DNA of 32,000 nt from Geobacter metallireducens GS-15 (GCF_000012925.1 NC_007517.1:810001-842000), one strand, 5' to 3'. Shown: positions 2,209-18,049, counted from the stretch's first letter. The notes: a model not told the origin generated them from the sequence alone. Numbers and translations: made by a program.

Positions 2209-3420
2209 TTACATGATTGAGAAATTCGTATGAATGGTGCGCTGGAGATCCTCGATTTTGATGAGAGCCTGGCGGATCTCCTCCCGTTCGTCGGCGGGGA
2301 GGGTGTAGGGGTTCAGGTAGTAGGAGCTCTTGTCGATTCCCTTGATGACCTTGATCTGGAGGAGGATCCGGTGCTTCGTCAAGGTGGTGTAAGCGTCAAC
2401 GAGCCCCTGGGCAAAGGTCGCCGAGAAGCTCCCCTCCTTCTGGAGCAGCTCGATTCGCCGCACGGTGTTCGTGGCCGGTATCCCCTGGTTGATGGCGAGA
2501 ATCCGAACGTTCATGACGAGTGGTGCCCAGGCGAGGAGCTTCAGGTTGAACTCTCCCTTGTGCTCCCCTGAACCTTCGGTCCAGAGCCGGTTCAGGAAGC
2601 CGAGGGCCAGCTTCATCTCCGTTGCCGCCTTGGCCATCCCCCAGAGTACCTGGAAGTAGTCCTGCTCCAGTCCCCGGATGAGTCCCACCAGGTCGTTGGC
2701 CAGGTCCTTGTCCCCCGCCACGTGGCGGGCGTCGGAGAGGACGATGAGGTCCATGAGGTTTTTGGCGTAATCCTCGTACTCGTAGCGGACGATGGCCAGG
2801 AGCTTTTTCTTCCATTGGCCGTAGGAGCCCCGCCAGGTGGGGTTCGACGGCATGATGTCGCCGGTGCACTTCTTGAATCCCATCTCCGCCATGCGCTCCA
2901 CCAGAGTCTCCGAGAATTCCCTGAACCACTGGTCGGCCGCCTCGCCGCCTTCGTCGCCGTAGACGATCAGGTAGTCCTGGTCGGTGATGAGGGTCTGCTC
3001 CTCCCGGCCGTCGCTCCCCATGCTGCAGAGGGCGTAGGAGCGCGGAGGGCTTCCTTTGCCGGTGGCTGCCATTTCCTGCTCCACCAGTTCCAGCGCCCGT
3101 CCCGCCAGGACATCCCGGTACTCCGTGCATGAGGCGTGGAGGGCGGTCACCGACTGAATCTTGAGAAACCGTTCCAGTTCCAGCCCATTCAATTCGTCGT
3201 GGATTTCCCGCAGCGCACCGTAGTCGGTTTCCCCCTTCACCCGGGCCATGAGTTCCCGCCGCCGTCCCGCTATCTGCCCCGTAAGGGCGATTTCATGATC
3301 GACCTCTTCCTTGAGCCGGTTGAGGATCAGCGGGATTTCGTCCTGTTCCAGGACCCGGACGAATGCGTTGATCCGGGCCATGGTTTCGGCTACGGCTGTC
3401 TGGATGATGTCGTTATGCAT
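2209..3420 (-). CDS. DUF294-type putative nucleotidyltransferase (DUF294 + DUF294_C-like half), without the usual N-terminal cNMP/CBS sensor domains
   Basis: ORF 2209..3456. I place the start at ATG 3420 (GAGGA Shine-Dalgarno 5 nt upstream, protein starts MHNDIIQ). The core CSMGSDGREEQTLITDQDYLIVYGD looks like a GS/DxD nucleotidyltransferase fold; the C-terminal half is helical. Confidence 0.6.
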   Translation of the reverse strand: MHNDIIQTAVAETMARINAFVRVLEQDEIPLILNRLKEEVDHEIALTGQIAGRRRELMARVKGETDYGALREIHDELNGLELERFLKIQSVTALHASCTEYRDVLAGRALELVEQEMAATGKGSPPRSYALCSMGSDGREEQTLITDQDYLIVYGDEGGEAADQWFREFSETLVERMAEMGFKKCTGDIMPSNPTWRGSYGQWKKKLLAIVRYEYEDYAKNLMDLIVLSDARHVAGDKDLANDLVGLIRGLEQDYFQVLWGMAKAATEMKLALGFLNRLWTEGSGEHKGEFNLKLLAWAPLVMNVRILAINQGIPATNTVRRIELLQKEGSFSATFAQGLVDAYTTLTKHRILLQIKVIKGIDKSSYYLNPYTLPADEREEIRQALIKIEDLQRTIHTNFSIM

Positions 3421-3438
3421 GCAGATCCTCGCGCGGGA

Positions 3439-3467
3439 TAAAAAAGGGGAAAGCAACGCTTTCCCCT
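3439..3467 (-). terminator. Intrinsic terminator downstream of the actP-like gene
   Basis: On the minus strand: AGGGGAAAGC-GUU-GCUUUCCCCU (perfect 10-bp stem, 3445..3454 / 3458..3467) followed by UUUUUUA (3444..3439). It lies 38 nt after the actP stop. Confidence 0.8.
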
Positions 3468-3504
3468 AATCCTAGCACAAATTATACCGAATTAAAAAGC
3501 CGTT

Positions 3505-5487
3505 CTAGTGGTCGATGGCCTTGGCCATGCCGATGCCGGTGTTCTGGCGGACGTAGATCTCGTCGAACATCTCCTCGGAGCGGCGGCTCGGGAAGGCGAG
3601 GCAGCCGATGATGGCGGCGATGAAGCCGAGCGGGATAGAGATGATGCCTGGGTTCTTCAGGTCGATGAGGGGCTTGTCGAGGCCGATGAAGGACTTGCCG
3701 TCCTTGTTGGTTTCGTAATCCTTCTTGGCCTTGTCGAGATCCTTCATTTCCTTATCGGAGAGGAGCGCGCCGGTGGCTTGCTTCTCTTCAAGCTTCACGA
3801 CCACCTTCTTGGCGTCGGCGGCAACCTTCTTCGGATAGGTCATGTTGGGGGAGACCATCACCAGGGCGATTGAGGCGATGGTGCCGACCACGAGGCCCGA
3901 CACGACGCCGGCGGTGTTGAACTTGCGCCAGAAGAGGGACATGACGACGACCGGCAGGTTGCCCGAGGAGGCAACGGCAAAGGCCAGGGCCACCAGGTGG
4001 GCGACGTTCTGCTTCTCGGCGGCGATGCCGATCAGGATGCCGGCGGCGCCGACGCAGAGGGAGGTGATCCGGGCGGCCATGACCTGCTCATGCTGGTCGG
4101 CGTGGCCGTCCTTGATAACGTTCACGTAGATGTCGTGGGCGATGGCGGCGGAGGCAGCCAGAACGAGGCCCGACACGACGGCGAGGATGGTGGCGAAGGC
4201 AACGGCGCAGAGGAAGGCCAGGAGCAGGTCGCCCAGGAACGGGGAGATGTCGCCGCCCAGCTTCTGGGCAAGCATCATGGCGGCCATGTTTCCGCCTTTA
4301 TCCACGGCGGAGATCCCTTGCGGGGTCACGTGGATGGCGGCGCCGAAGCCGAGGAGCGTCGTCAGGATGTAGAAGAAGCCGATGATGAACATGGCAACGA
4401 TAACGGACTTGCGGGCTGCCTGGGCGGTCGGCACGGTGAAGAAGCGCATCAGGATGTGGGGCATGCCAGCAGTGCCGAGCACGAGGGCCATGCCGAGGGA
4501 TATCTGGTCAAGAGGATTCTTCATGAAGAGACCCGGTTCAAGGAACCGCTGCCCGTAGTCGAAGCCGGCCACGGCCACGGGATCCTTCAGGACCACCTTC
4601 TGCACGTGCTCGATGATGTTGGGGCTGGTGGCGATGTCGTTGAAGAACTGGAACGGGTTCATGCCCGACTTGATGCCCACGAGGATGGAGAGAACGAATG
4701 CACCGGTCATGAGGAGGCCGGCCTTGATGATCTGGACCCAGGTGGTGGCGGTCATGCCACCGAAGACGACGTAGCCGACCATGAGGATGCCGACGCCGAT
4801 GATGGCGAACTTGTAGGGGATGCCGATCAGCAGCTGCATGAGTTTCCCGGCGCCGACCATCTGGGCGGTGAGATAGAAGGTGGAGACGGCCACGACGGAG
4901 AGGGCGCAGACGGCCCGGACCACTTTCGGCTCGGTACGGAAGGAGAGGATGTCCCCCAGGGTGTACTTGCCGGCGTTGCGGCACGGCTCGGCCACGATGA
5001 GGAGCACCGTGATGTAGGCCACGAGCCATCCCACCGAGTACATGAAGCCGTCATAGCCGTAGAGGGAGATCATGCCGGAAATCCCCAGGAAGGAGGCGGC
5101 CGACATGTAGTCGCCGGCGATGGCCCAGCCGTTCTGGGTGCCGGTGATGCCGCCGCCCGCGGTGTAGAAGTCGGCAGCCGACTTGGTCCGCTTGGCCGAC
5201 CAGACGACGACGGCCATGGTCACGGCGATGATGATCAAAAAGATCGGGATGGTGACCATCGGGTTGGCCTTGATGGTCTTCTTCTCGGGAGTTGCGGCCG
5301 GCGTTGCCACCTTGGCTGCGGTGGCTGCTGCGGGCGCCGTGGCTGCCGGGGCAGGGGTTGTGGCTGCCGGTGCGGTTACGGCGGTCGGAGCGCCGGGGGA
5401 CGCGGGGGCCTTGGCAGGCTCCTCGGCAAAGGCGGCGAACGAGCCCAGGGAGAGGGCCAGAGTTATACCAGCAAGCAGTTTTTTCAT
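3505..5487 (-). CDS. actP: Cation/acetate symporter, ActP-like (sodium:solute symporter family)
   Basis: 660-aa multi-TM ORF with a GGAGGA SD 5 nt before ATG 5487. ActP-type motif FYTAGGGITGTQNGWAIAGDYMSAASFLGISG. Directly preceded by a DUF485 gene, as in yjcH-actP. N-terminal signal peptide followed by a Pro/Ala/Thr-rich linker. Confidence 0.85.
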   Translation of the reverse strand: MKKLLAGITLALSLGSFAAFAEEPAKAPASPGAPTAVTAPAATTPAPAATAPAAATAAKVATPAATPEKKTIKANPMVTIPIFLIIIAVTMAVVVWSAKRTKSAADFYTAGGGITGTQNGWAIAGDYMSAASFLGISGMISLYGYDGFMYSVGWLVAYITVLLIVAEPCRNAGKYTLGDILSFRTEPKVVRAVCALSVVAVSTFYLTAQMVGAGKLMQLLIGIPYKFAIIGVGILMVGYVVFGGMTATTWVQIIKAGLLMTGAFVLSILVGIKSGMNPFQFFNDIATSPNIIEHVQKVVLKDPVAVAGFDYGQRFLEPGLFMKNPLDQISLGMALVLGTAGMPHILMRFFTVPTAQAARKSVIVAMFIIGFFYILTTLLGFGAAIHVTPQGISAVDKGGNMAAMMLAQKLGGDISPFLGDLLLAFLCAVAFATILAVVSGLVLAASAAIAHDIYVNVIKDGHADQHEQVMAARITSLCVGAAGILIGIAAEKQNVAHLVALAFAVASSGNLPVVVMSLFWRKFNTAGVVSGLVVGTIASIALVMVSPNMTYPKKVAADAKKVVVKLEEKQATGALLSDKEMKDLDKAKKDYETNKDGKSFIGLDKPLIDLKNPGIISIPLGFIAAIIGCLAFPSRRSEEMFDEIYVRQNTGIGMAKAIDH

Positions 5488-6712: not shown

Positions 6713-7073
6713 CGTTACCTTCCGTCAAGAATGGTGTGCAAGGCTGTTTTATAAACAATGTTATATTGTGTGATTATTTTTTAGCACGACGTTTTACTTG
6801 CGTCAACATCAATTTCAATAAAAAAATTAAATTTAAAAAAATAATACGTAAATCCGGTGCGTTAAAAACATGAGTTACCATATATAGACGCTGGAGCGCC
6901 GTTTTGTTTGCTTTATAGAACGTGGTTTATGGTAGTGCCTGGGTTTGTCGGGGTGCGTTTGATTATGCTGTTGATTCTGTGGCGGGTGTAATGGGGTTTG
7001 AATGAATTTATAAAGGGCGAGTGGGGGTAAGGATAGGAAAAGATAATAAGGGGGCGGGTGGAAGGGGTGGCGG

Positions 7074-11668: not shown

Positions 11669-12376
11669 ATGAAAAGGATACTATTTGCGCTTGCGCTGGT
11701 TGCATCAGTGGCAACATCTGGCTGGGCTATTACGTATACTGGTTCACTAGCCAGCAGTCCTGGTGGTGGATTGCTTGCAACTCTGGACTGGGCAGGGATA
11801 ACCACTGCCGGTGCTCCTAATTCTTCCCTGAGTTGGACTGTTGACGATACGACCAATACCGGTCTCTGGACCTACAACTACATCTGGACCGGAACGCGTA
11901 AGGGATTGAGCCACATCGTCATTGAAGTGTCGGATACTTTTACTAAAGACAACATTATGCAAATTTCCAGCGGGTATGATGGGGATGCCCCTAAAACCTA
12001 TTCTCCTTCTGATGCATCCAATGATGGCCTTCCCGCTGACATTTGGGGCATAAAGTGGAATGCTGAGGGAACTGTCTTCAATTTCAGTATCGTTACCGAT
12101 CGTGAGCCCATGTGGGGCGATGTATATGCCCGTGATGGAAAGACTGGCGGATCAGATGTCTATGCGTACAATACCGGCTTCGGCTTCGATACTGCTGCTG
12201 TCATTGCCGATGGCAACGCGTTCGATCAAGCGACCGGTCGCGCATGGGCACTGGTTCCCGATACGGAGAATGGCGGCGGCGGGCAGCAGGAGGTCGTTCC
12301 CGAACCGGGCACGATTATGCTCCTCGGCACCGGTCTGATCGGCCTTGCGCTTTATGGCAGGAGACGGATGAAGTAA
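11669..12376 (+). CDS. PEP-CTERM sorting-domain protein (predicted exosortase substrate)
   Basis: 235 aa. Signal peptide MKRILFALALVASVATSGWA. C-terminus VPEPGTIMLLGTGLIGLALYGRRRMK (PEP motif + TM helix + Arg cluster). GGAGG SD 5 nt upstream. GC is visibly lower than in the flanks. Confidence 0.9.
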   Translation: MKRILFALALVASVATSGWAITYTGSLASSPGGGLLATLDWAGITTAGAPNSSLSWTVDDTTNTGLWTYNYIWTGTRKGLSHIVIEVSDTFTKDNIMQISSGYDGDAPKTYSPSDASNDGLPADIWGIKWNAEGTVFNFSIVTDREPMWGDVYARDGKTGGSDVYAYNTGFGFDTAAVIADGNAFDQATGRAWALVPDTENGGGGQQEVVPEPGTIMLLGTGLIGLALYGRRRMK

Positions 12377-12513: not shown

Positions 12514-14277
12514 TTACTTGTAAACCGTTATGGAAGTGGTTGTGGTGTTGCCGGCGGCATCGAAGGCTTTGGACAGTATGGTGTGGGCACCGGTAGCGAT
12601 TTTTCGCGTATTCCAGCTGTAAGACAGGCTGGTGACGCCTGTTTTGCTGGTTGCCAGCTTGCCGTCAATGTAGAGCTCGATGCGGCTTACCCCCACATTG
12701 TCGCCGGCGGTGATGGTGATCGTTGCACTGGTCCCGACCTTTGCGCCGTTGGCCGGGGAGGTGATGGCGACGGTCGGGGCGATGGTGTCGGGAGTGTTTG
12801 AAACCTTGACCGAAACAGCGCTTGATTGCCCCATGTTTCCCGCGCCGTCGAAGGCCACGGCCTCCAGGGTGTAGGAGCCGTCCGCCGTGGTGGTGGTGTC
12901 CCACGAGAAGGCGTAGGGCGCGGTGGTTGCCGTGGCGAAGGGGGCGCCGTTGATGCGGAGCTCCACCTTGGCCACGCCGACGTTGTCAGAAGCCGCCACC
13001 GCCACCGACGCGTTTCCTTTCACGATACTGGAACTCGCGGGGGAGGTGATCGATGCGGTCGGGGCAGTTGTGTCGCCGACCGGCACTGCATTCTGGGCAG
13101 CCGTGAGGCTCTTGAGGACGTTGATCCGGCCGTAGCCGAAGTACTGATCGAAGCCGGGGGTGCCGATGTCGTCGGCATTTTTGGTGATGATGTCCACCAC
13201 CTGGGCATTGGTCAGGGTCGGGTTAACGGAGAGGATCAGCGCGCCGAGCCCCGCCGCGATGGGAGAGGAGAAGGAGGTGCCGCTCACGCTCGCATAGCCG
13301 CCGCCGTTGGCGGTGGTGAGGATGGAGACGCCGGGGGCCGCGATATCGATGGTGGAGCCGTAGTTGGAAAAGCTCGCCTTGGCGTCGTTGGCGTCGGTGG
13401 CCGCCACCGACACGGCGTTGGTGCAGGCGGCCGGATAGTAGGGGGTGCTCGTGTTGTAGTTGGCTGCCGAGGCAAAGACAATGGCTCCTTTGTTCCAGGC
13501 GTAGTTCACGGCATTCTGGAGAGTCGAGGAACTGGTGGAGCCGCCGTAGCTGAGATTGATGATGCGGACCCCATGATCGGCGGCGTAGGTGATGGCACTG
13601 GCCATGCGCGAGTAGGTAGCGTAGCCGGTGGAATCCGCGATCACCAGGGGCATGATCTGGTTCTGCCACGCCACGCCGGCAACCCCGGCGCCGTTATTAC
13701 CCATGGCCCCGGCCGAGCCTGCGACCTTTGTCCCGTGCCCGGTCACATCGTGGGTATCGGTGTTGTTGAAGACAAAGTTGAAACCGGGGAGAAGCTTGCC
13801 GGCCAGGTCCGGGTGAGATGGATCGACGCCCGAGTCCAGGATGGCGATGTCAACGGAACTGGAGCCGGTGGAGATGTCCCATCCCGCCGGAGCGGCAATC
13901 TTGGGGAGATGCCACTGGGAGGCGTAGGAGGGATCGTTGGGAACCATTGTCTGCTCAGCCAGGTAATTCTCTTCGACGAACGTTACGTGGGGATTCTTGG
14001 CCAGAGCAGCCTTGACCTTTGCCCGGGCAGCAGCAGGGACCTTGATCCTCTTTACCCGGATCGGAGCGATTTCCTCGGCTTCCCGGGCGCCGGCTCCCTT
14101 GAGGACGGTGTCGGCATTGGCCTTGTGGACGCCAGCCTTGAACTGGACAAGGAGCTCATCGGTTACGAACTTCTGGGGAGGGGGTGCGGCACCGGCCATT
14201 CCCGCTGCCAGGCAGAGGATGCCGAGGGTGCCAAGGTGAAGGGTGATCTTTCCACAAACTCGTTTCGTGCAGCGCAT
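12514..14277 (-). CDS. Secreted subtilisin-like serine peptidase (S8 family) with I9-like propeptide and two C-terminal Ig-like domains, paralog A
   Basis: 587 aa. Signal peptide ...LCLAAGMAGA/APPPQ. Catalytic triad contexts AILDSGVD, HDVTGHGTKVAG, SGTSFSSPIAAG. The C-terminus has 2 x (D-T-APT-x-I-T-SP...DNVGV..VE..I.G....WNT/WDT...G.H/Y.L...A.D.AGN). GGAGGTG SD upstream. Confidence 0.9.
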   Translation of the reverse strand: MRCTKRVCGKITLHLGTLGILCLAAGMAGAAPPPQKFVTDELLVQFKAGVHKANADTVLKGAGAREAEEIAPIRVKRIKVPAAARAKVKAALAKNPHVTFVEENYLAEQTMVPNDPSYASQWHLPKIAAPAGWDISTGSSSVDIAILDSGVDPSHPDLAGKLLPGFNFVFNNTDTHDVTGHGTKVAGSAGAMGNNGAGVAGVAWQNQIMPLVIADSTGYATYSRMASAITYAADHGVRIINLSYGGSTSSSTLQNAVNYAWNKGAIVFASAANYNTSTPYYPAACTNAVSVAATDANDAKASFSNYGSTIDIAAPGVSILTTANGGGYASVSGTSFSSPIAAGLGALILSVNPTLTNAQVVDIITKNADDIGTPGFDQYFGYGRINVLKSLTAAQNAVPVGDTTAPTASITSPASSSIVKGNASVAVAASDNVGVAKVELRINGAPFATATTAPYAFSWDTTTTADGSYTLEAVAFDGAGNMGQSSAVSVKVSNTPDTIAPTVAITSPANGAKVGTSATITITAGDNVGVSRIELYIDGKLATSKTGVTSLSYSWNTRKIATGAHTILSKAFDAAGNTTTTSITVYK

Positions 14278-14438
14278 GCGCCACCTCCATGGGTTGAGTT
14301 TGCTTCCTACCTCAGAAACAGACCCCCGTACCTATGGAAGGCGGGCGTTGCTCTTCGACAACCCGGCTATCCTGACCATGGAGTCAGGACCCGTGGCTTT
14401 GCGTCCCCCGGTTACCCGAAGTTTGCCCTTTCGGAAAC
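13057..14438. repeat. Direct repeat copy 1 (about 1.38 kb, near-identical to 15912..17293)
   Basis: By-eye alignment at a constant offset of 2855 nt. Identity begins at the codons for ...VPVGDTTAPT and runs through the catalytic domain, the start codon and 161 nt of leader. It ends abruptly at 14438/17293. Confidence 0.9.
14353..14438 (-). promoter_or_regulatory. GEMM-I (c-di-GMP / 3'3'-cGAMP class) riboswitch aptamer, copy 1, in the leader of S8 peptidase A
   Basis: Minus-strand RNA: GUUUCCGAAAGGGCAAAC-UUCGG-GUAA-CCGGG-GGACGCAAAGCC-ACGGGU-CCUGAC-UCCAUG-GUCAGG-AUAGCCGGGUUGUCGAAG. It contains the conserved GGCAAAC and GACGCAAAGCC blocks, a GNRA-capped P2, a P3 hairpin and the AGCCGGGUU block in canonical order. 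Confidence 0.75.
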
Positions 14439-14497
14439 TTTCTTCTTTATCTGTTACTACATTTCGGCGTCAGGATGGATAACTTGAGGGGAAAAAA

Positions 14498-14513
14498 TGT
14501 GACTTGAATCACA
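14498..14513. promoter_or_regulatory. CRP/FNR-superfamily-type palindrome TGTGA-N6-TCACA upstream of S8 peptidase A leader
   Basis: TGTGACTTGAATCACA is a perfect match to the CRP core half-sites. It lies about 67 nt upstream of the aptamer 5' end and overlaps the stop codon of the Crp/Fnr-family gene. Confidence 0.5.
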
Positions 14514-15225
14514 AAAACGGGGGATTGAGAAAGAGGGTAGGTTTGAGGAGCATTCTTCTGCTGGCGAGGAGTTCGATCTCTCCAGCACGGGAGAAGCGGC
14601 CCAAAATGCGGCTTGCCGTCTCCCGGGATACCGATGCGTAACCGGCGACGGTGCGGTGGGTTAGCTTGATGCTGAGAATTTTGCCACGAGAATCGTCCAC
14701 GCCATACTGGGTTCCGAGATATTTGAGGACTCCCCTGACCTTCTGCTCGGCGGAGGAAAAGCGTGACAGCTTCATGAGGAACCATGATTCGCGCAGCCGC
14801 GAACAAAGCACGCTGATGATCTGCCGCAGCATCCGGTCGTTGGTGAGAATCTGGTTTTCAAAGGCTGTCCGGGCAATGAGGCCGACGGTGGCGTCTTCGT
14901 GGGCGATGAGCGTTGCCGGAGACGTGCGGCCGTCAAGGAGGGCCATTTCGCCGAAAAACGCCCCCTTGCGATGAATGGCAAGGACCTGTTCCGTGCCGTC
15001 GTTGCTGTGCTGGACTACCCGCACTTTTCCCGCAAGGACGAGGTACATGTAGTTGGCTGTATCGGCTTCATGAAGGATGGTGCGATTTTTCGGAAAGACC
15101 TGGATCTCAATGAGCTTGCTTAACGTATTGATGTCATCGGGTGGGAGGGGGGCAAAGAGCGGAATGGCGCTCAGAATCGATTGGAGAGGGGCCGGTATGG
15201 TTGTACGTGGATTCTTGGAGTTCAT
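14509..15225 (-). CDS. Crp/Fnr-family transcriptional regulator (cNMP-binding domain + C-terminal HTH)
   Basis: cNMP-binding signature GAFFGEMALLDGRTSPATLIAHEDATV. HTH: THRTVAGYASVSRETASRILGRFSRAGEI. Start placed at ATG 15225 because a strong sigma-70-type promoter lies inside the longer GTG-initiated ORF (15288). Confidence 0.85.
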   Translation of the reverse strand: MNSKNPRTTIPAPLQSILSAIPLFAPLPPDDINTLSKLIEIQVFPKNRTILHEADTANYMYLVLAGKVRVVQHSNDGTEQVLAIHRKGAFFGEMALLDGRTSPATLIAHEDATVGLIARTAFENQILTNDRMLRQIISVLCSRLRESWFLMKLSRFSSAEQKVRGVLKYLGTQYGVDDSRGKILSIKLTHRTVAGYASVSRETASRILGRFSRAGEIELLASRRMLLKPTLFLNPPFL

Positions 15226-15249
15226 GGTGAGATACCTGTCGGTTGCCGG

Positions 15250-15277
15250 ATTATAATGCAAGTATAGCAGCCTTGAA
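15250..15277 (-). promoter_or_regulatory. Sigma-70-type promoter of the Crp/Fnr-family gene
   Basis: On the minus strand: TTCAAG (15277..15272), 16-nt spacer, TATAAT (15255..15250). About 25 nt upstream of ATG 15225. Confidence 0.55.
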
Positions 15278-15304
15278 GATGAATACACGTAACAGGGTAA
15301 CAGA

Positions 15305-15346
15305 CAAAAAAAGAGGGGAGGGGCTGACTCTGCCCTCTCCCCTTTT
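15305..15346 (-). terminator. Intrinsic terminator of S8 peptidase B
   Basis: On the minus strand, an imperfect GC-rich hairpin (GGGGAGAGGGC-AGAGUCA-GCCCCUCCCCUC) is followed by U8 (plus-strand A-run 15306..15313). About 22 nt after the stop at 15369. Confidence 0.7.
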
Positions 15347-15368
15347 CGTTAACCCGCAATGGAGTTGA

Positions 15369-17132
15369 TTACTTGTAGACGGTAATGGTGGTCGTACCGA
15401 CGTTTCCGAACCAGTCGAAGGCCTTGGCGAGAATTGTGTGAGTGCCCGTGGCTACCTTGCGGGTGTTCCATGCATAGGTGAGGGTGTTGGTGCCGCTTGC
15501 CGTGGTGAGGAGGAGTCCGTCAAAGTAAAGTTCAATCTTTCTGACCGCCAGATTGTCTTTTGCTGAAATGCTGACCGTCGTTTTTGTGCCGAGCGTGATG
15601 CCCGTTGCCGGCGCTGTGATGGAGACCGTGGGCGCAATGGTGTCCAGTGAGTTGTACACGACGATTCCCGCTAGGCTCAATTCTCCCACGTTCCCGGCGG
15701 CGTCATAGGCTTTGACCGCGATAGTGTAGATGCTGTCGGGCAGGGTGGTTGTGTCCCATGAGAAGCTGAAGGGGGATGTGTTACTGGAGGCGTACAGTGC
15801 GCCGTTTATGTAAAGCTCTATCCGGGTGACACCGATGTTGTCGGCTGCCGCAACGTTGACTGTTACCGTTCCCTTGACCGTCGAGCCGGCGTTGAGCGAT
15901 GGGATTGAGACTGTCGGGGCAGTTGTGTCGCCGACCGGCACCGCATTCTGGGCAGCCGTGAGGCTCTTGAGGACGTTGATCCGGCCGTAGCCGAAGTACT
16001 GATCGAAGCCGGGGGTGCCGATGTCGTCGGCATTTTTGGTGATGATGTCCACCACCTGGGCATTGGTCAGGGTCGGGTTAACGGAGAGGATCAGCGCGCC
16101 GAGCCCCGCTGCGATGGGAGAGGAGAAGGAGGTGCCGCTCACGCTCGCATAGCCGCCGCCGTTGGCGGTGGTGAGGATGGAGACGCCAGGGGCGGTGATA
16201 TCGATGGTGGAACCGTAGTTGGAGAAGCTCGCCTTGGCGTCGTTGGCGTCGGTGGCCGCCACCGACACGGCGTTGGTGCAGGCGGCCGGATAGTAGGGGG
16301 TGCTCGTGTTGTAGTTGGCTGCCGAGGCAAAGACAATGGCCCCTTTGTTCCAGGCGTAGTTCACGGCATTCTGGAGAGTCGAGGAACTGGTGGAGCCGCC
16401 GTAGCTGAGATTGATGATGCGGACCCCATGATCGGCGGCGTAGGTGATGGCACTGGCCATGCGCGAGTAGGTAGCGTAGCCGGTGGAATCCGCGATCACC
16501 AGGGGCATGATCTGGTTCTGCCACGCCACGCCGGCAACCCCGGCGCCGTTATTACCCATGGCCCCGGCCGAGCCTGCGACCTTTGTCCCGTGCCCGGTCA
16601 CATCGTGGGTATCGGTGTTGTTGAAGACAAAGTTGAAACCGGGGAGAAGCTTGCCGGCCAGGTCCGGGTGAGATGGATCGACGCCCGAGTCCAGGATGGC
16701 GATGTCAACGGAACTGGAGCCGGTGGAGATGTCCCATCCCGCCGGAGCGGCAATCTTGGGGAGATGCCACTGGGAGGCGTAGGAGGGATCGTTGGGAACC
16801 ATTGTCTGCTCAGCCAGGTAATTCTCTTCGACGAACGTTACGTGGGGATTCTTGGCCAGAGCAGCCTTGACCTTTGCCCGGGCAGCAGCAGGGACCTTGA
16901 TCCTCTTTACCCGGATCGGAGCGATTTCCTCGGCTTCCTGGGCGCCGGCTCCCTTGAGGACGGTGTCTGAATTGTCCTTGTGGACGCCAGCCTTGAACTG
17001 GACGAGGAGCTCATCGGTTACGAACTTCTGGGGAGGGGGGGCGGCACCGGCCATTCCCGCTGCCAGGCAGAGGATACCGAGGGTGCCAAGGTGAAGGGTG
17101 ATCTTCCCACAAACTCGTTTCGTGCAGCGCAT
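15369..17132 (-). CDS. Secreted subtilisin-like serine peptidase (S8 family) with two C-terminal Ig-like domains, paralog B
   Basis: 587 aa, the same length as paralog A. Only 4 aa differences over the first ~405 residues (signal, propeptide, catalytic domain), but roughly half identity over the last ~180 residues (Ig-like domains). Confidence 0.9.
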   Translation of the reverse strand: MRCTKRVCGKITLHLGTLGILCLAAGMAGAAPPPQKFVTDELLVQFKAGVHKDNSDTVLKGAGAQEAEEIAPIRVKRIKVPAAARAKVKAALAKNPHVTFVEENYLAEQTMVPNDPSYASQWHLPKIAAPAGWDISTGSSSVDIAILDSGVDPSHPDLAGKLLPGFNFVFNNTDTHDVTGHGTKVAGSAGAMGNNGAGVAGVAWQNQIMPLVIADSTGYATYSRMASAITYAADHGVRIINLSYGGSTSSSTLQNAVNYAWNKGAIVFASAANYNTSTPYYPAACTNAVSVAATDANDAKASFSNYGSTIDITAPGVSILTTANGGGYASVSGTSFSSPIAAGLGALILSVNPTLTNAQVVDIITKNADDIGTPGFDQYFGYGRINVLKSLTAAQNAVPVGDTTAPTVSIPSLNAGSTVKGTVTVNVAAADNIGVTRIELYINGALYASSNTSPFSFSWDTTTLPDSIYTIAVKAYDAAGNVGELSLAGIVVYNSLDTIAPTVSITAPATGITLGTKTTVSISAKDNLAVRKIELYFDGLLLTTASGTNTLTYAWNTRKVATGTHTILAKAFDWFGNVGTTTITVYK

Positions 17133-17293
17133 GCGCCACCTCCATGGGTTGAGTTTGCTTCCTACCTCAGAAACAGACCCCCGTACCTATGGAAGGCGGG
17201 CGTTGCTCTTCGACAACCCGGCTATCCTGACCATGGAGTCAGGACCCGTGGCTTTGCGTCCTCCGGTTACCCGAAGTTTGCCCTCTCGGAAAC
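15912..17293. repeat. Direct repeat copy 2 (near-identical to 13057..14438)
   Basis: See copy 1. I counted about 8 mismatches in the ~300 nt next to the 3' junction and very few elsewhere. Confidence 0.9.
17208..17293 (-). promoter_or_regulatory. GEMM-I riboswitch aptamer, copy 2, in the leader of S8 peptidase B
   Basis: Same sequence as copy 1 (offset +2855) except for 2 substitutions (17262, 17285). One converts a predicted U.G pair of P2 into U-A, which is consistent with the proposed helix. Confidence 0.75.
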
Positions 17294-17350: not shown

Positions 17351-17366
17351 CGTGACGGTTGTCACA
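17351..17366. promoter_or_regulatory. CRP-type palindrome CGTGA-N6-TCACA upstream of S8 peptidase B leader
   Basis: CGTGACGGTTGTCACA lies about 65 nt upstream of the aptamer 5' end, at almost the same distance as box 1, although the surrounding sequence is outside the duplicated segment. Confidence 0.45.
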
Positions 17367-17506: not shown

Positions 17507-18049
17507 ATGAAAATCCTCCTCCATATGTGCTGCGGGCCGTGCGCCGCCTATCCGGTTGAGCAACTCCGGGGCCAAGGCGCGGCGGTGACCGGCTACTGGT
17601 TCAACCACAATATCCACCCCTATCAGGAGTACATGCGTCGTCGCGACACGGTGCGGGCGTATGCGGAAAAGGTGAGGCTCGATGTGATCTGGCGCGACGA
17701 GTACCGGCTGGAGGAGTTCCTGGCCGCGGTGGCCCAGAACCCGGACGATCGCTGCTTTTACTGCTACTTCTCTCGTCTTGATGCTGTCGCGGCCGCAGCA
17801 GCGGCAGGAGGATTCGACGCGTTCAGTTCCACGCTCCTCTACAGCCGCTACCAGAAGCATGACGCGATCCGCGACTGCGCCGAGCGGGCGGCAGAGCGTC
17901 ACGGCGTGGCCTTCCATTACGACGACTACCGGCGGGGATGGCAGGAGGGGATCCGCCTCTCCAAGGAGCTGGGGCTCTACCGCCAGCAGTACTGCGGCTG
18001 CATTTACAGCGAGAAGGAACGGTATCATCCGCGGGAAGGGGCGAAGTGA
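17507..18049 (+). CDS. queH: Epoxyqueuosine reductase QueH (DUF208 family)
   Basis: 180 aa. MKILLHMCCGPCAAYP (HxCCxPC) and YRQQYCGCIYSEKERY are hallmark DUF208/QueH motifs. Confidence 0.85.
   Translation: MKILLHMCCGPCAAYPVEQLRGQGAAVTGYWFNHNIHPYQEYMRRRDTVRAYAEKVRLDVIWRDEYRLEEFLAAVAQNPDDRCFYCYFSRLDAVAAAAAAGGFDAFSSTLLYSRYQKHDAIRDCAERAAERHGVAFHYDDYRRGWQEGIRLSKELGLYRQQYCGCIYSEKERYHPREGAK

Follow-up and report, generated by a model that had tools for sequence, protein, structure and literature searches.

The question raised by this locus is why an operator should lie on the stop codon of a regulator gene, and which gene it serves. In a stretch of 32,000 nucleotides (nt) from Geobacter metallireducens GS-15 (NC_007517.1:810001-842000, from GCF_000012925.1; referred to below as the window, with positions counted from its first letter), a gene for a Crp/Fnr-family regulator of 238 amino acids, here called crp (14509..15225, minus strand), ends inside a perfect CRP-type palindrome, box A. 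It is followed on the same strand by a gene for an S8 peptidase, protease A (12514..14277), whose leader holds a riboswitch, while a tandem paralogue, protease B (15369..17132), lies on the other side of crp, also on the minus strand. Our reading, to which we give a probability of roughly 0.6, is that box A is the operator of the adjacent Crp-subfamily regulator and provides class II-type activation of the riboswitch-led protease A. An initial annotation of this DNA had drawn attention to the palindrome but treated its overlap with the stop codon as incidental; the overlap instead turns out to be the most conserved and most unusual feature of the locus, found in the same register in 10 loci.

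A search of the window for perfect TGTGA-N6-TCACA sequences returned a single match, TGTGACTTGAATCACA at 14498-14513 (minus strand; TGTGATTCAAGTCACA on the gene strand). Dinucleotide shuffles give an expectation of 0.03 such boxes per window, with at least one match in 3 of 100 shuffles. The palindrome described in the initial annotation is indeed perfect and unique in the window. The gene strand around it reads TTT TTG TGA ttcaag TCACA tttttt. The crp stop codon TGA, the reverse complement of 14509-14511, falls within the box, and the half-site TGTGA is formed by the last sense codon together with the stop (TTG-TGA, Leu-stop). A run of six T, also noted previously, directly follows the box on the gene strand, and the riboswitch aptamer of protease A starts 61 nt from the end of the box and 69.5 nt from its centre, close to the earlier estimate of about 67 nt. 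Box A therefore has what is looked for in a CRP-type operator, being a 16-bp palindrome that is beyond chance and is kept in orthologues with its spacer free to vary, and on this sequence evidence it is very probably a functional protein-binding site and not a chance palindrome.

Orthologous loci illustrate this freedom of the spacer. At the crp stop of Geobacter hydrogenophilus, the nearest named relative (locus L001; Crp identity 84%), the box reads TGTGATCGGCATCACA, and at the same position it reads TGTGATACCCATCACA in an uncultured Geobacter (L002; 78%), TGTGACATAAATCACT in a Geobacter genome from a metagenome (L163; 83%) and TGTGATGTTCGTCACT in a read-archive assembly (L165; 74%). Between constant half-sites, the six nucleotides of the spacer bear no resemblance from one site to the next (TTCAAG, TCGGCA, TACCCA, CATAAA, TGTTCG, CAATTA). 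Since one half-site is coding in these loci, its conservation could in principle reflect coding constraint alone, an explanation that is ruled out by loci in which the same half-site is free of the reading frame: L086, the second protease promoter of L163, and L170 and L171, described below. In L086, where Crp identity is 47% and the order Crp-box-riboswitch-protease is the same as in the window, crp stops at a TAA codon 4 nt ahead of the box TGTGACAATTATCACT, and the half-site is non-coding. The second protease promoter of L163 likewise keeps its box in non-coding DNA. This promoter contains, at 6950-7004 of that locus, a non-coding relic of the Crp 3' end (aaaccagccctc...ttttgtga) in which the box is retained; the duplication in L163 appears to have copied the operator along with the gene end.

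The register between box and stop codon extends well beyond close orthologues. The window regulator has 647 homologues at E <= 1e-30, and in the best 120 of these (46-100% identity), in which C-termini were counted, the last residue is Leu, Val or Met in 96 (Leu 83, Val 7, Met 6), with Ile in 1 and Phe in 2 and with tails that are otherwise variable. Leu, Val and Met are the only residues with codons able to end in TG. In every homologue ending in one of these three residues for which the DNA was fetched, the box begins 2 nt before the stop, and overall this exact register (NTG-TGA, with TTG, ATG or GTG as the last codon and TGA as the stop) was found in 10 loci whose Crp proteins are 47-84% identical to that of the window. 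These include TTG-TGA with a perfect box in L166 and in Geobacter sp. DSM 9736 (L169, LT896716.1; Crp 47% identical), ATG-TGA with a perfect box in L167 and L172, and GTG-TGA with a box bearing one mismatch in L168. The core GTGA-N6-TCAC is invariant in 12 sites, and position 6 is always a pyrimidine. Control sets did not show these features: a box near the stop was present in 0 of 12 distant Crp-family genes (26-34% identity), and a Leu, Val or Met C-terminus was found in 19 of 77 regulator-sized representatives of more distant Crp clusters, with no bias. A requirement of the protein for a hydrophobic C-terminus is an unlikely explanation of the bias in the subfamily, given these unbiased distant relatives and the rarity of Ile and Phe beside the commoner Met. 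We propose instead that the operator, by including the final codon, restricts the last residue to Leu, Met or Val.

Two rearranged loci separate the box from the stop codon. The L170 regulator, a protein named by NCBI from a Nitrospirota genome, has Phe as its last residue; 70 nt separate the stop of its gene from the box, with TACAAT 22 nt beyond the box. L171 has a convergent neighbour; no box is present at the stop of its regulator gene, and the promoter of the neighbour, which encodes a Big_7 secreted protein, contains two. A box accompanies the subfamily gene in 13 of 13 sampled loci, across such rearrangements, and L170 and L171 together indicate that it goes with the target gene and not with the stop codon as such. 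The upstream half-site would then be fixed on NTG-TGA because the target promoter begins where the regulator gene ends, an arrangement that the comparison suggests is old and has been retained across the subfamily. In L168 (3936-6346) and L172 (3326-5723), the box is followed by genes for a pilin-like N_methyl protein and then a TMEM260_N/PMT_2 glycosyltransferase-like protein. Judged from such predicted products, targets of the subfamily seem generally to be secreted or surface proteins.

The regulator itself has the expected features of a protein that reads such a site. It belongs to the Crp/Fnr superfamily (PF00027, 5.6e-23; PF13545, 5.6e-08), with matches in the PDB to GlxR, Mycobacterium tuberculosis CRP and E. 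coli CAP, the first two being the closest solved structures by sequence. Its recognition helix, VSRETASR, aligns to CSRETVGR of E. coli CRP and retains R180, E181 and R185 (R-E-x-x-x-R), and all but a small minority of the 120 homologues carry the motif SRET[AV][ST]R. The operator is thus linked in cis to a regulator that has kept, in its helix, the residues with which CRP recognises TGTGA, and we consider it probable that box A is bound by the adjacent regulator. The ligand-binding domain tells a different story from the helix. Against the CRP equivalog model NF008732 the regulator scores 59.2 bits, where the cut-off is 266, so that it is not assigned to the CRP equivalog. Of the residues of the canonical cyclic AMP (cAMP) pocket (G71, E72, R82, S83), the Gly-Glu pair is kept and the phosphate-binding Arg is displaced: the pocket motif FGEMALLDGRTSPAT (residues ~92-106, window 14908-14952) corresponds to a subfamily signature FGE-x4-DG[K/R]TSPAT (FGEMxLLDG[K/R]TSPAT), in which Lys is commoner than Arg. 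BLAST places R82 and S83 of CRP opposite Ser and Pro, and a HMMER alignment with GlxR aligns the Arg after a 2-residue deletion. With a non-canonical pocket and a displaced Arg, the ligand of the regulator may be something other than cAMP.

Downstream of box A, the leader of protease A carries a c-di-GMP-I-UAU aptamer, a variant of the GEMM-I class of cyclic di-GMP (c-di-GMP) riboswitches, at 14353..14436 (minus strand; RF03168, 69.7 bits), and that of protease B carries another at 17208..17291 (minus strand; 69.2 bits), both narrowly over the gathering score of 65.9 bits. Between aptamer A and the protease A gene lies the expression platform (14278..14352, minus strand), in which an anti-Shine-Dalgarno sequence CCGCCUUCC pairs with the Shine-Dalgarno sequence GGAGGUGG in the predicted fold. 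The minimum-free-energy structure of 14268-14466 is -73.1 kcal/mol (z = -2.7), and the predicted pairing points to a riboswitch that probably acts on translation and not on termination. To our knowledge no ligand has been established for the UAU variant, and a literature search for its ligand and for Geobacter Crp regulators of GEMM genes gave nothing useful. The earlier idea of two layers of cyclic-nucleotide-type control on one gene was not sustained, given the non-canonical G[K/R]TSPAT pocket, the 59-bit score against the cut-off of 266 and the assignment of the riboswitch to the UAU variant.

The placement of a CRP-type box upstream of a riboswitch leader, which the initial annotation had singled out, does hold, and it is found in unrelated loci as well. 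In a metagenome scan with a GEMM-I aptamer pattern, which yielded 82 loci and 481 kb of DNA, all 4 perfect boxes fall within 200 nt upstream of an aptamer. Two of these loci, L102 and L117, have homologous promoters with different spacers, in which the box stands 20 nt before TAGACT or TAGAAT. In L169 a second perfect box lies 21 nt before TATTAC and is followed by tandem c-di-GMP-I aptamers, and in L171 both promoter boxes precede a c-di-GMP-I riboswitch. Taken together, L102/L117, L169 and L171 suggest that CRP-type sites and GEMM-I leaders have been paired repeatedly and independently in several lineages. Across 3707-4264 of L169, one can read in succession the box on the crp stop, the second box and the two aptamers; the next gene encodes a dockerin-like protein (a weak Pfam match) that is presumably secreted.

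Evidence for what the box does comes from its distance to downstream promoter elements. In E. coli class II CRP promoters such as galP1, CRP is centred at -41.5. We searched 19-22 nt after each box for -10-like hexamers, defined as having A at position 2, T at position 6 and at least 3/6 matches. Such a hexamer follows 10 of the 13 boxes at non-protease subfamily loci, compared with 2.7 expected, a count that 0 of 5000 shuffles reached, and the distances peak at 21 nt. Outside the protease group, this spacing corresponds to the geometry of a class II activator, with a site centre that would lie at -41.5. The resemblance to E. coli class II promoters extends to the 16-bp TGTGA-N6-TCACA site, the R-E-x-x-x-R helix and, for the majority of subfamily loci, the combination of a -10-like hexamer at a distance of 20-22 nt with the lack of a good -35 element. 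At protease A, the candidate is a weak -10, CATCCT (14472..14477, minus strand), read from the sequence 20 nt after box A, from which transcription would start near 14464-14465, with the box centred at -40.5 to -41.5. Of the box centres envisaged at the outset, -41.5 fits the family-wide geometry, but the -10 of protease A itself is weak and no more than a candidate.

Combining these observations, we propose that a dimer of the regulator, through its CRP-like helix, binds TGTGA-N6-TCACA, and that box A, centred near -41, would stand in for the -35 element of a co-directional promoter that makes the riboswitch-bearing leader of protease A. A weaker box upstream of the paralogous protease B, box B, may have an equal or similar role. 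Expression would thus pass two checkpoints, initiation being set by the regulator and the second step by the GEMM-I-variant riboswitch, which probably hides the ribosome-binding site. From the sequence comparisons we infer binding by this particular protein, activation over repression at this locus, and the start site.

Several observations at the protease loci weigh against this proposal. The only hexamer at class II spacing in protease A is the weak CATCCT, and its orthologue counterparts, AATGGT, CATTAT and CATCTT, are found at distances from the box that vary from 18 to 21 nt. Within the protease group a -10 at 19-22 nt is found in 5 of 11 cases, which is not significant (P = 0.23), and a simple sigma-70 scan found no promoter at protease A. 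Protease B, L163 and L165 share a different arrangement, TTGATT-N17-TAnnnn starting 5-10 nt after the box, and a promoter of this type would centre the box near -48.5 to -53.5, which is non-canonical for CRP. Since no terminator was found between crp and the protease A leader, read-through from crp could also supply the leader. Linkage, finally, is the evidence that assigns the box to the adjacent regulator and not to another CRP-like paralogue. Other -10 candidates for protease A were considered beside CATCCT, namely TAGTAA, TAACAG and GATAAA; the four would put the box centre at -40.5, -58.5, -61.5 and -67.5, respectively, and none was decisive. With so weak a -10, activation at protease A is drawn from the behaviour of the wider subfamily, and we put the odds that box A activates protease A from a class II-like position at about even.

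The fixed register could also have a different origin. A regulator bound to its own stop codon might stop RNA polymerase arriving from the crp promoter, which would yield a truncated, non-stop crp mRNA, rescue by trans-translation and hence negative autoregulation, and would insulate protease A from read-through; such a roadblock may also add to activation. A register fixed on the stop codon throughout the subfamily would be expected if what counts is where the site lies with respect to the regulator gene itself, the operator does span the 3' end of that gene (2 nt before the stop in 10 loci), and the absence of a detected terminator before the protease A leader would give a roadblock something to do. 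The lacI stop codon, similarly, lies inside the operator O3. LacI bound at O3 is reported to act as a roadblock that cuts short the lacI transcript, and the truncated product receives an SsrA tag and is degraded (Abo et al. 2000, as cited in PMC3711431). DNA-binding proteins can also halt transcription that is coupled to translation, trans-translation then serving as the rescue pathway (PMC13584721). However, cAMP-CRP is no roadblock in the lac system (PMC3711431), the box leaves the stop codon for the target when the target is not directly downstream (L170, L171), and a roadblock leaves the conserved spacing from the box to the -10 element unexplained, which makes this account unlikely. We regard repression as somewhat less likely again. 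Here the box would overlap or abut the true promoter elements, such as TTGATT-N17-TAnnnn, and occlude RNA polymerase until a ligand releases the regulator. The lack of a clean class II -10 in the protease-group loci would fit this. So would the conserved, -35-like TTGATT of protease B, L163 and L165, whose start 5-10 nt downstream of the box puts the box centre near -48.5 to -53.5, atypical for activation by CRP; moreover, Crp/Fnr proteins can repress, and HcpR sites have been predicted over promoter elements (PMC545781). Nevertheless, a site centred upstream of the -35 element leaves the core promoter unoccluded, and the other subfamily loci have class II geometry and poor -35 elements.

Whether the adjacent protein is the one that binds is a separate matter. 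GlxR and Mycobacterium tuberculosis CRP share the TGTGA-N6-TCACA specificity. More generally, many Crp-family proteins have an R-E-R helix and this specificity, Desulfovibrio HcpR among them (PMC545781), so that a different CRP-like protein, for example a global CRP, could use the box and the adjacency could be incidental. The perfect boxes before GEMM-I riboswitches in L102, L117 and L118, on contigs with no visible subfamily gene, point in that direction, but these contigs are short. Set against the joint occurrence of box and subfamily gene in all 13 sampled loci, across rearrangements, and the lack of a box at distant Crp genes, an unrelated binder appears improbable. Least probable of all, to the point that we give it very little weight, is the alternative raised in the initial annotation that the palindrome is merely a weak intrinsic terminator or pause hairpin of the crp transcript. 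A 6-bp hairpin ahead of U6 is indeed possible in the RNA (-5.1 kcal/mol, z = -4.7), and the T-run is kept in the protease group. In four species, however, the hairpins reach -5.1, -4.6, -4.9 and -2.6 kcal/mol, against -25.8 kcal/mol for the terminator region after protease B, and the palindrome is absent from the output of a terminator scan. The arms show no covariation, being TGTGA and TCACA in 12 of 12 sites, the T-run is confined to the protease group (it is absent in L166-L169 and L172), and the box also occurs in promoters away from gene 3' ends (L170, L171, L102, L117).

A combination of two of these functions can be imagined, although we hold it to be speculative and rather doubtful. 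A dual, 'self-terminal' operator would activate the next gene and at the same time block the polymerases and ribosomes that are finishing the crp message, with the regulator and the riboswitch reading one cyclic dinucleotide. If true, it would explain the frozen NTG-TGA register and the Leu, Met or Val C-terminus across the subfamily. A cyclic dinucleotide as the signal sensed by the regulator would be in keeping with its non-canonical pocket and the recurrent pairing with GEMM-I leaders, in which case one signal would act at initiation and again in the leader.

Returning to class II-type activation by the adjacent regulator, the arrangement can be compared with known systems. Unlike E. coli CRP, the window regulator is not a CRP equivalog, has a non-canonical pocket and looks like a local, cis-linked regulator and not a global one. 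Like lacI-O3, the operator spans the 3' end of its regulator's gene and immediately precedes the promoter under control. It differs from lacI-O3 in being the main site, and probably an activator site, of a Crp-type protein, and in that the overlap is conserved throughout a subfamily and fixes the C-terminal residue; a roadblock is here putative. A further parallel is gbpA of Vibrio cholerae, which has cAMP-CRP at its promoter and the Vc1 c-di-GMP-I riboswitch in its leader (PMC4545359). In both cases the gene for a secreted or surface protein has a CRP-type site together with a riboswitch of the GEMM-I class in its 5' untranslated region. The V. cholerae regulator, however, is the global cAMP-CRP encoded elsewhere, whereas here there is a dedicated neighbour, the aptamer is of the UAU type and the pairing is seen in several lineages.

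Crp/Fnr-family regulators outside the enterobacteria provide a further comparison. Desulfovibrio HcpR has the predicted site TTGTGA-N6-TCACAA and is often encoded beside its target (PMC545781). The window regulator is, like HcpR, GlxR and Mycobacterium tuberculosis CRP, a Crp/Fnr-family protein from outside that group, but these belong to other subfamilies (about 25-35% identity or less), the G[K/R]TSPAT motif is specific to the window subfamily, and none of the three has been reported with a site on its own stop codon. Class II CRP sites, the combination of a CRP site with a c-di-GMP riboswitch (gbpA) and an operator roadblock of a regulator transcript (lacI-O3) are thus known already. New, as far as a literature search shows, are a dedicated Crp subfamily with an operator anchored at the stop codon of the regulator gene, the visible constraint that this operator places on the C-terminal residue, and its recurrent coupling to GEMM-I riboswitches. 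The locus therefore offers a testable case of a regulatory constraint at the DNA level shaping the C-terminus of a protein, in the form of a compact cassette of regulator and promoter in a widespread and apparently undescribed Crp subfamily with members in Geobacter, Nitrospirota and other metagenomic lineages. Genes for several kinds of secreted or surface protein (S8 proteases, Big_7 proteins and the dockerin-like protein) repeat the design with two checkpoints, and for Geobacter signalling the locus supplies a candidate regulator for genes of an orphan riboswitch variant.

On the far side of crp, the leader of protease B has its own, weaker site. Box B, overlooked in the initial annotation, lies at 17351..17366 (minus strand; TGTGACAACCGTCACG on the gene strand) and has one mismatch; it ends 59 nt before the aptamer of protease B, matching the 61 nt of box A, and degenerate copies occupy the equivalent position in L001, L002 and L099. 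The suggestion that the regulator is encoded between its two putative targets gains support from this box. Boxes with two mismatches are fewer in the window than expected by chance (4 against 8.2), and those at 2198 and 28102 were dismissed as chance-level matches. A possible sigma-54 promoter at protease B was rejected on inspection, the GG-N8-GC spacing being wrong. The gene at 17507-18049 (plus strand), divergent from protease B, probably encodes QueH, judging by PF02677 in its L163 counterpart; as box B lies in the intergenic region shared by the two divergent genes, it could affect this gene too.

Both proteases are assigned to the S8 family by Pfam, protease A having a fervidolysin-like propeptide, a subtilase domain and Big_7 domains. 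The two hardly differ in their leaders and roughly their first 400 amino acids (96% identity over a 300-nt stretch), their C-terminal Big_7 regions have diverged, and this pattern suggests a recent duplication or gene conversion of the tandem pair. Between protease B and crp lies a strong intrinsic terminator (15312..15345, minus strand), the region 15300-15360 folding at -25.8 kcal/mol and being followed by a T-run. Because it separates crp from protease B, crp should have its own promoter, and a TATACT -10-like element kept in orthologues is present upstream of the gene. No autoregulatory box was found in the crp promoter, either in 15226-15310 or in the equivalent regions of the orthologues.

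Elsewhere in the window, a DUF294 nucleotidyltransferase-type gene (2209-5487, minus strand) stands beside a sodium:solute symporter gene and is apparently unrelated to the box. Convergent with protease A, at 11669-12376 (plus strand), is a gene for a PEP-CTERM-anchored protein; S8 proteases and PEP-CTERM proteins are both exported, and a functional link between the two is conceivable.

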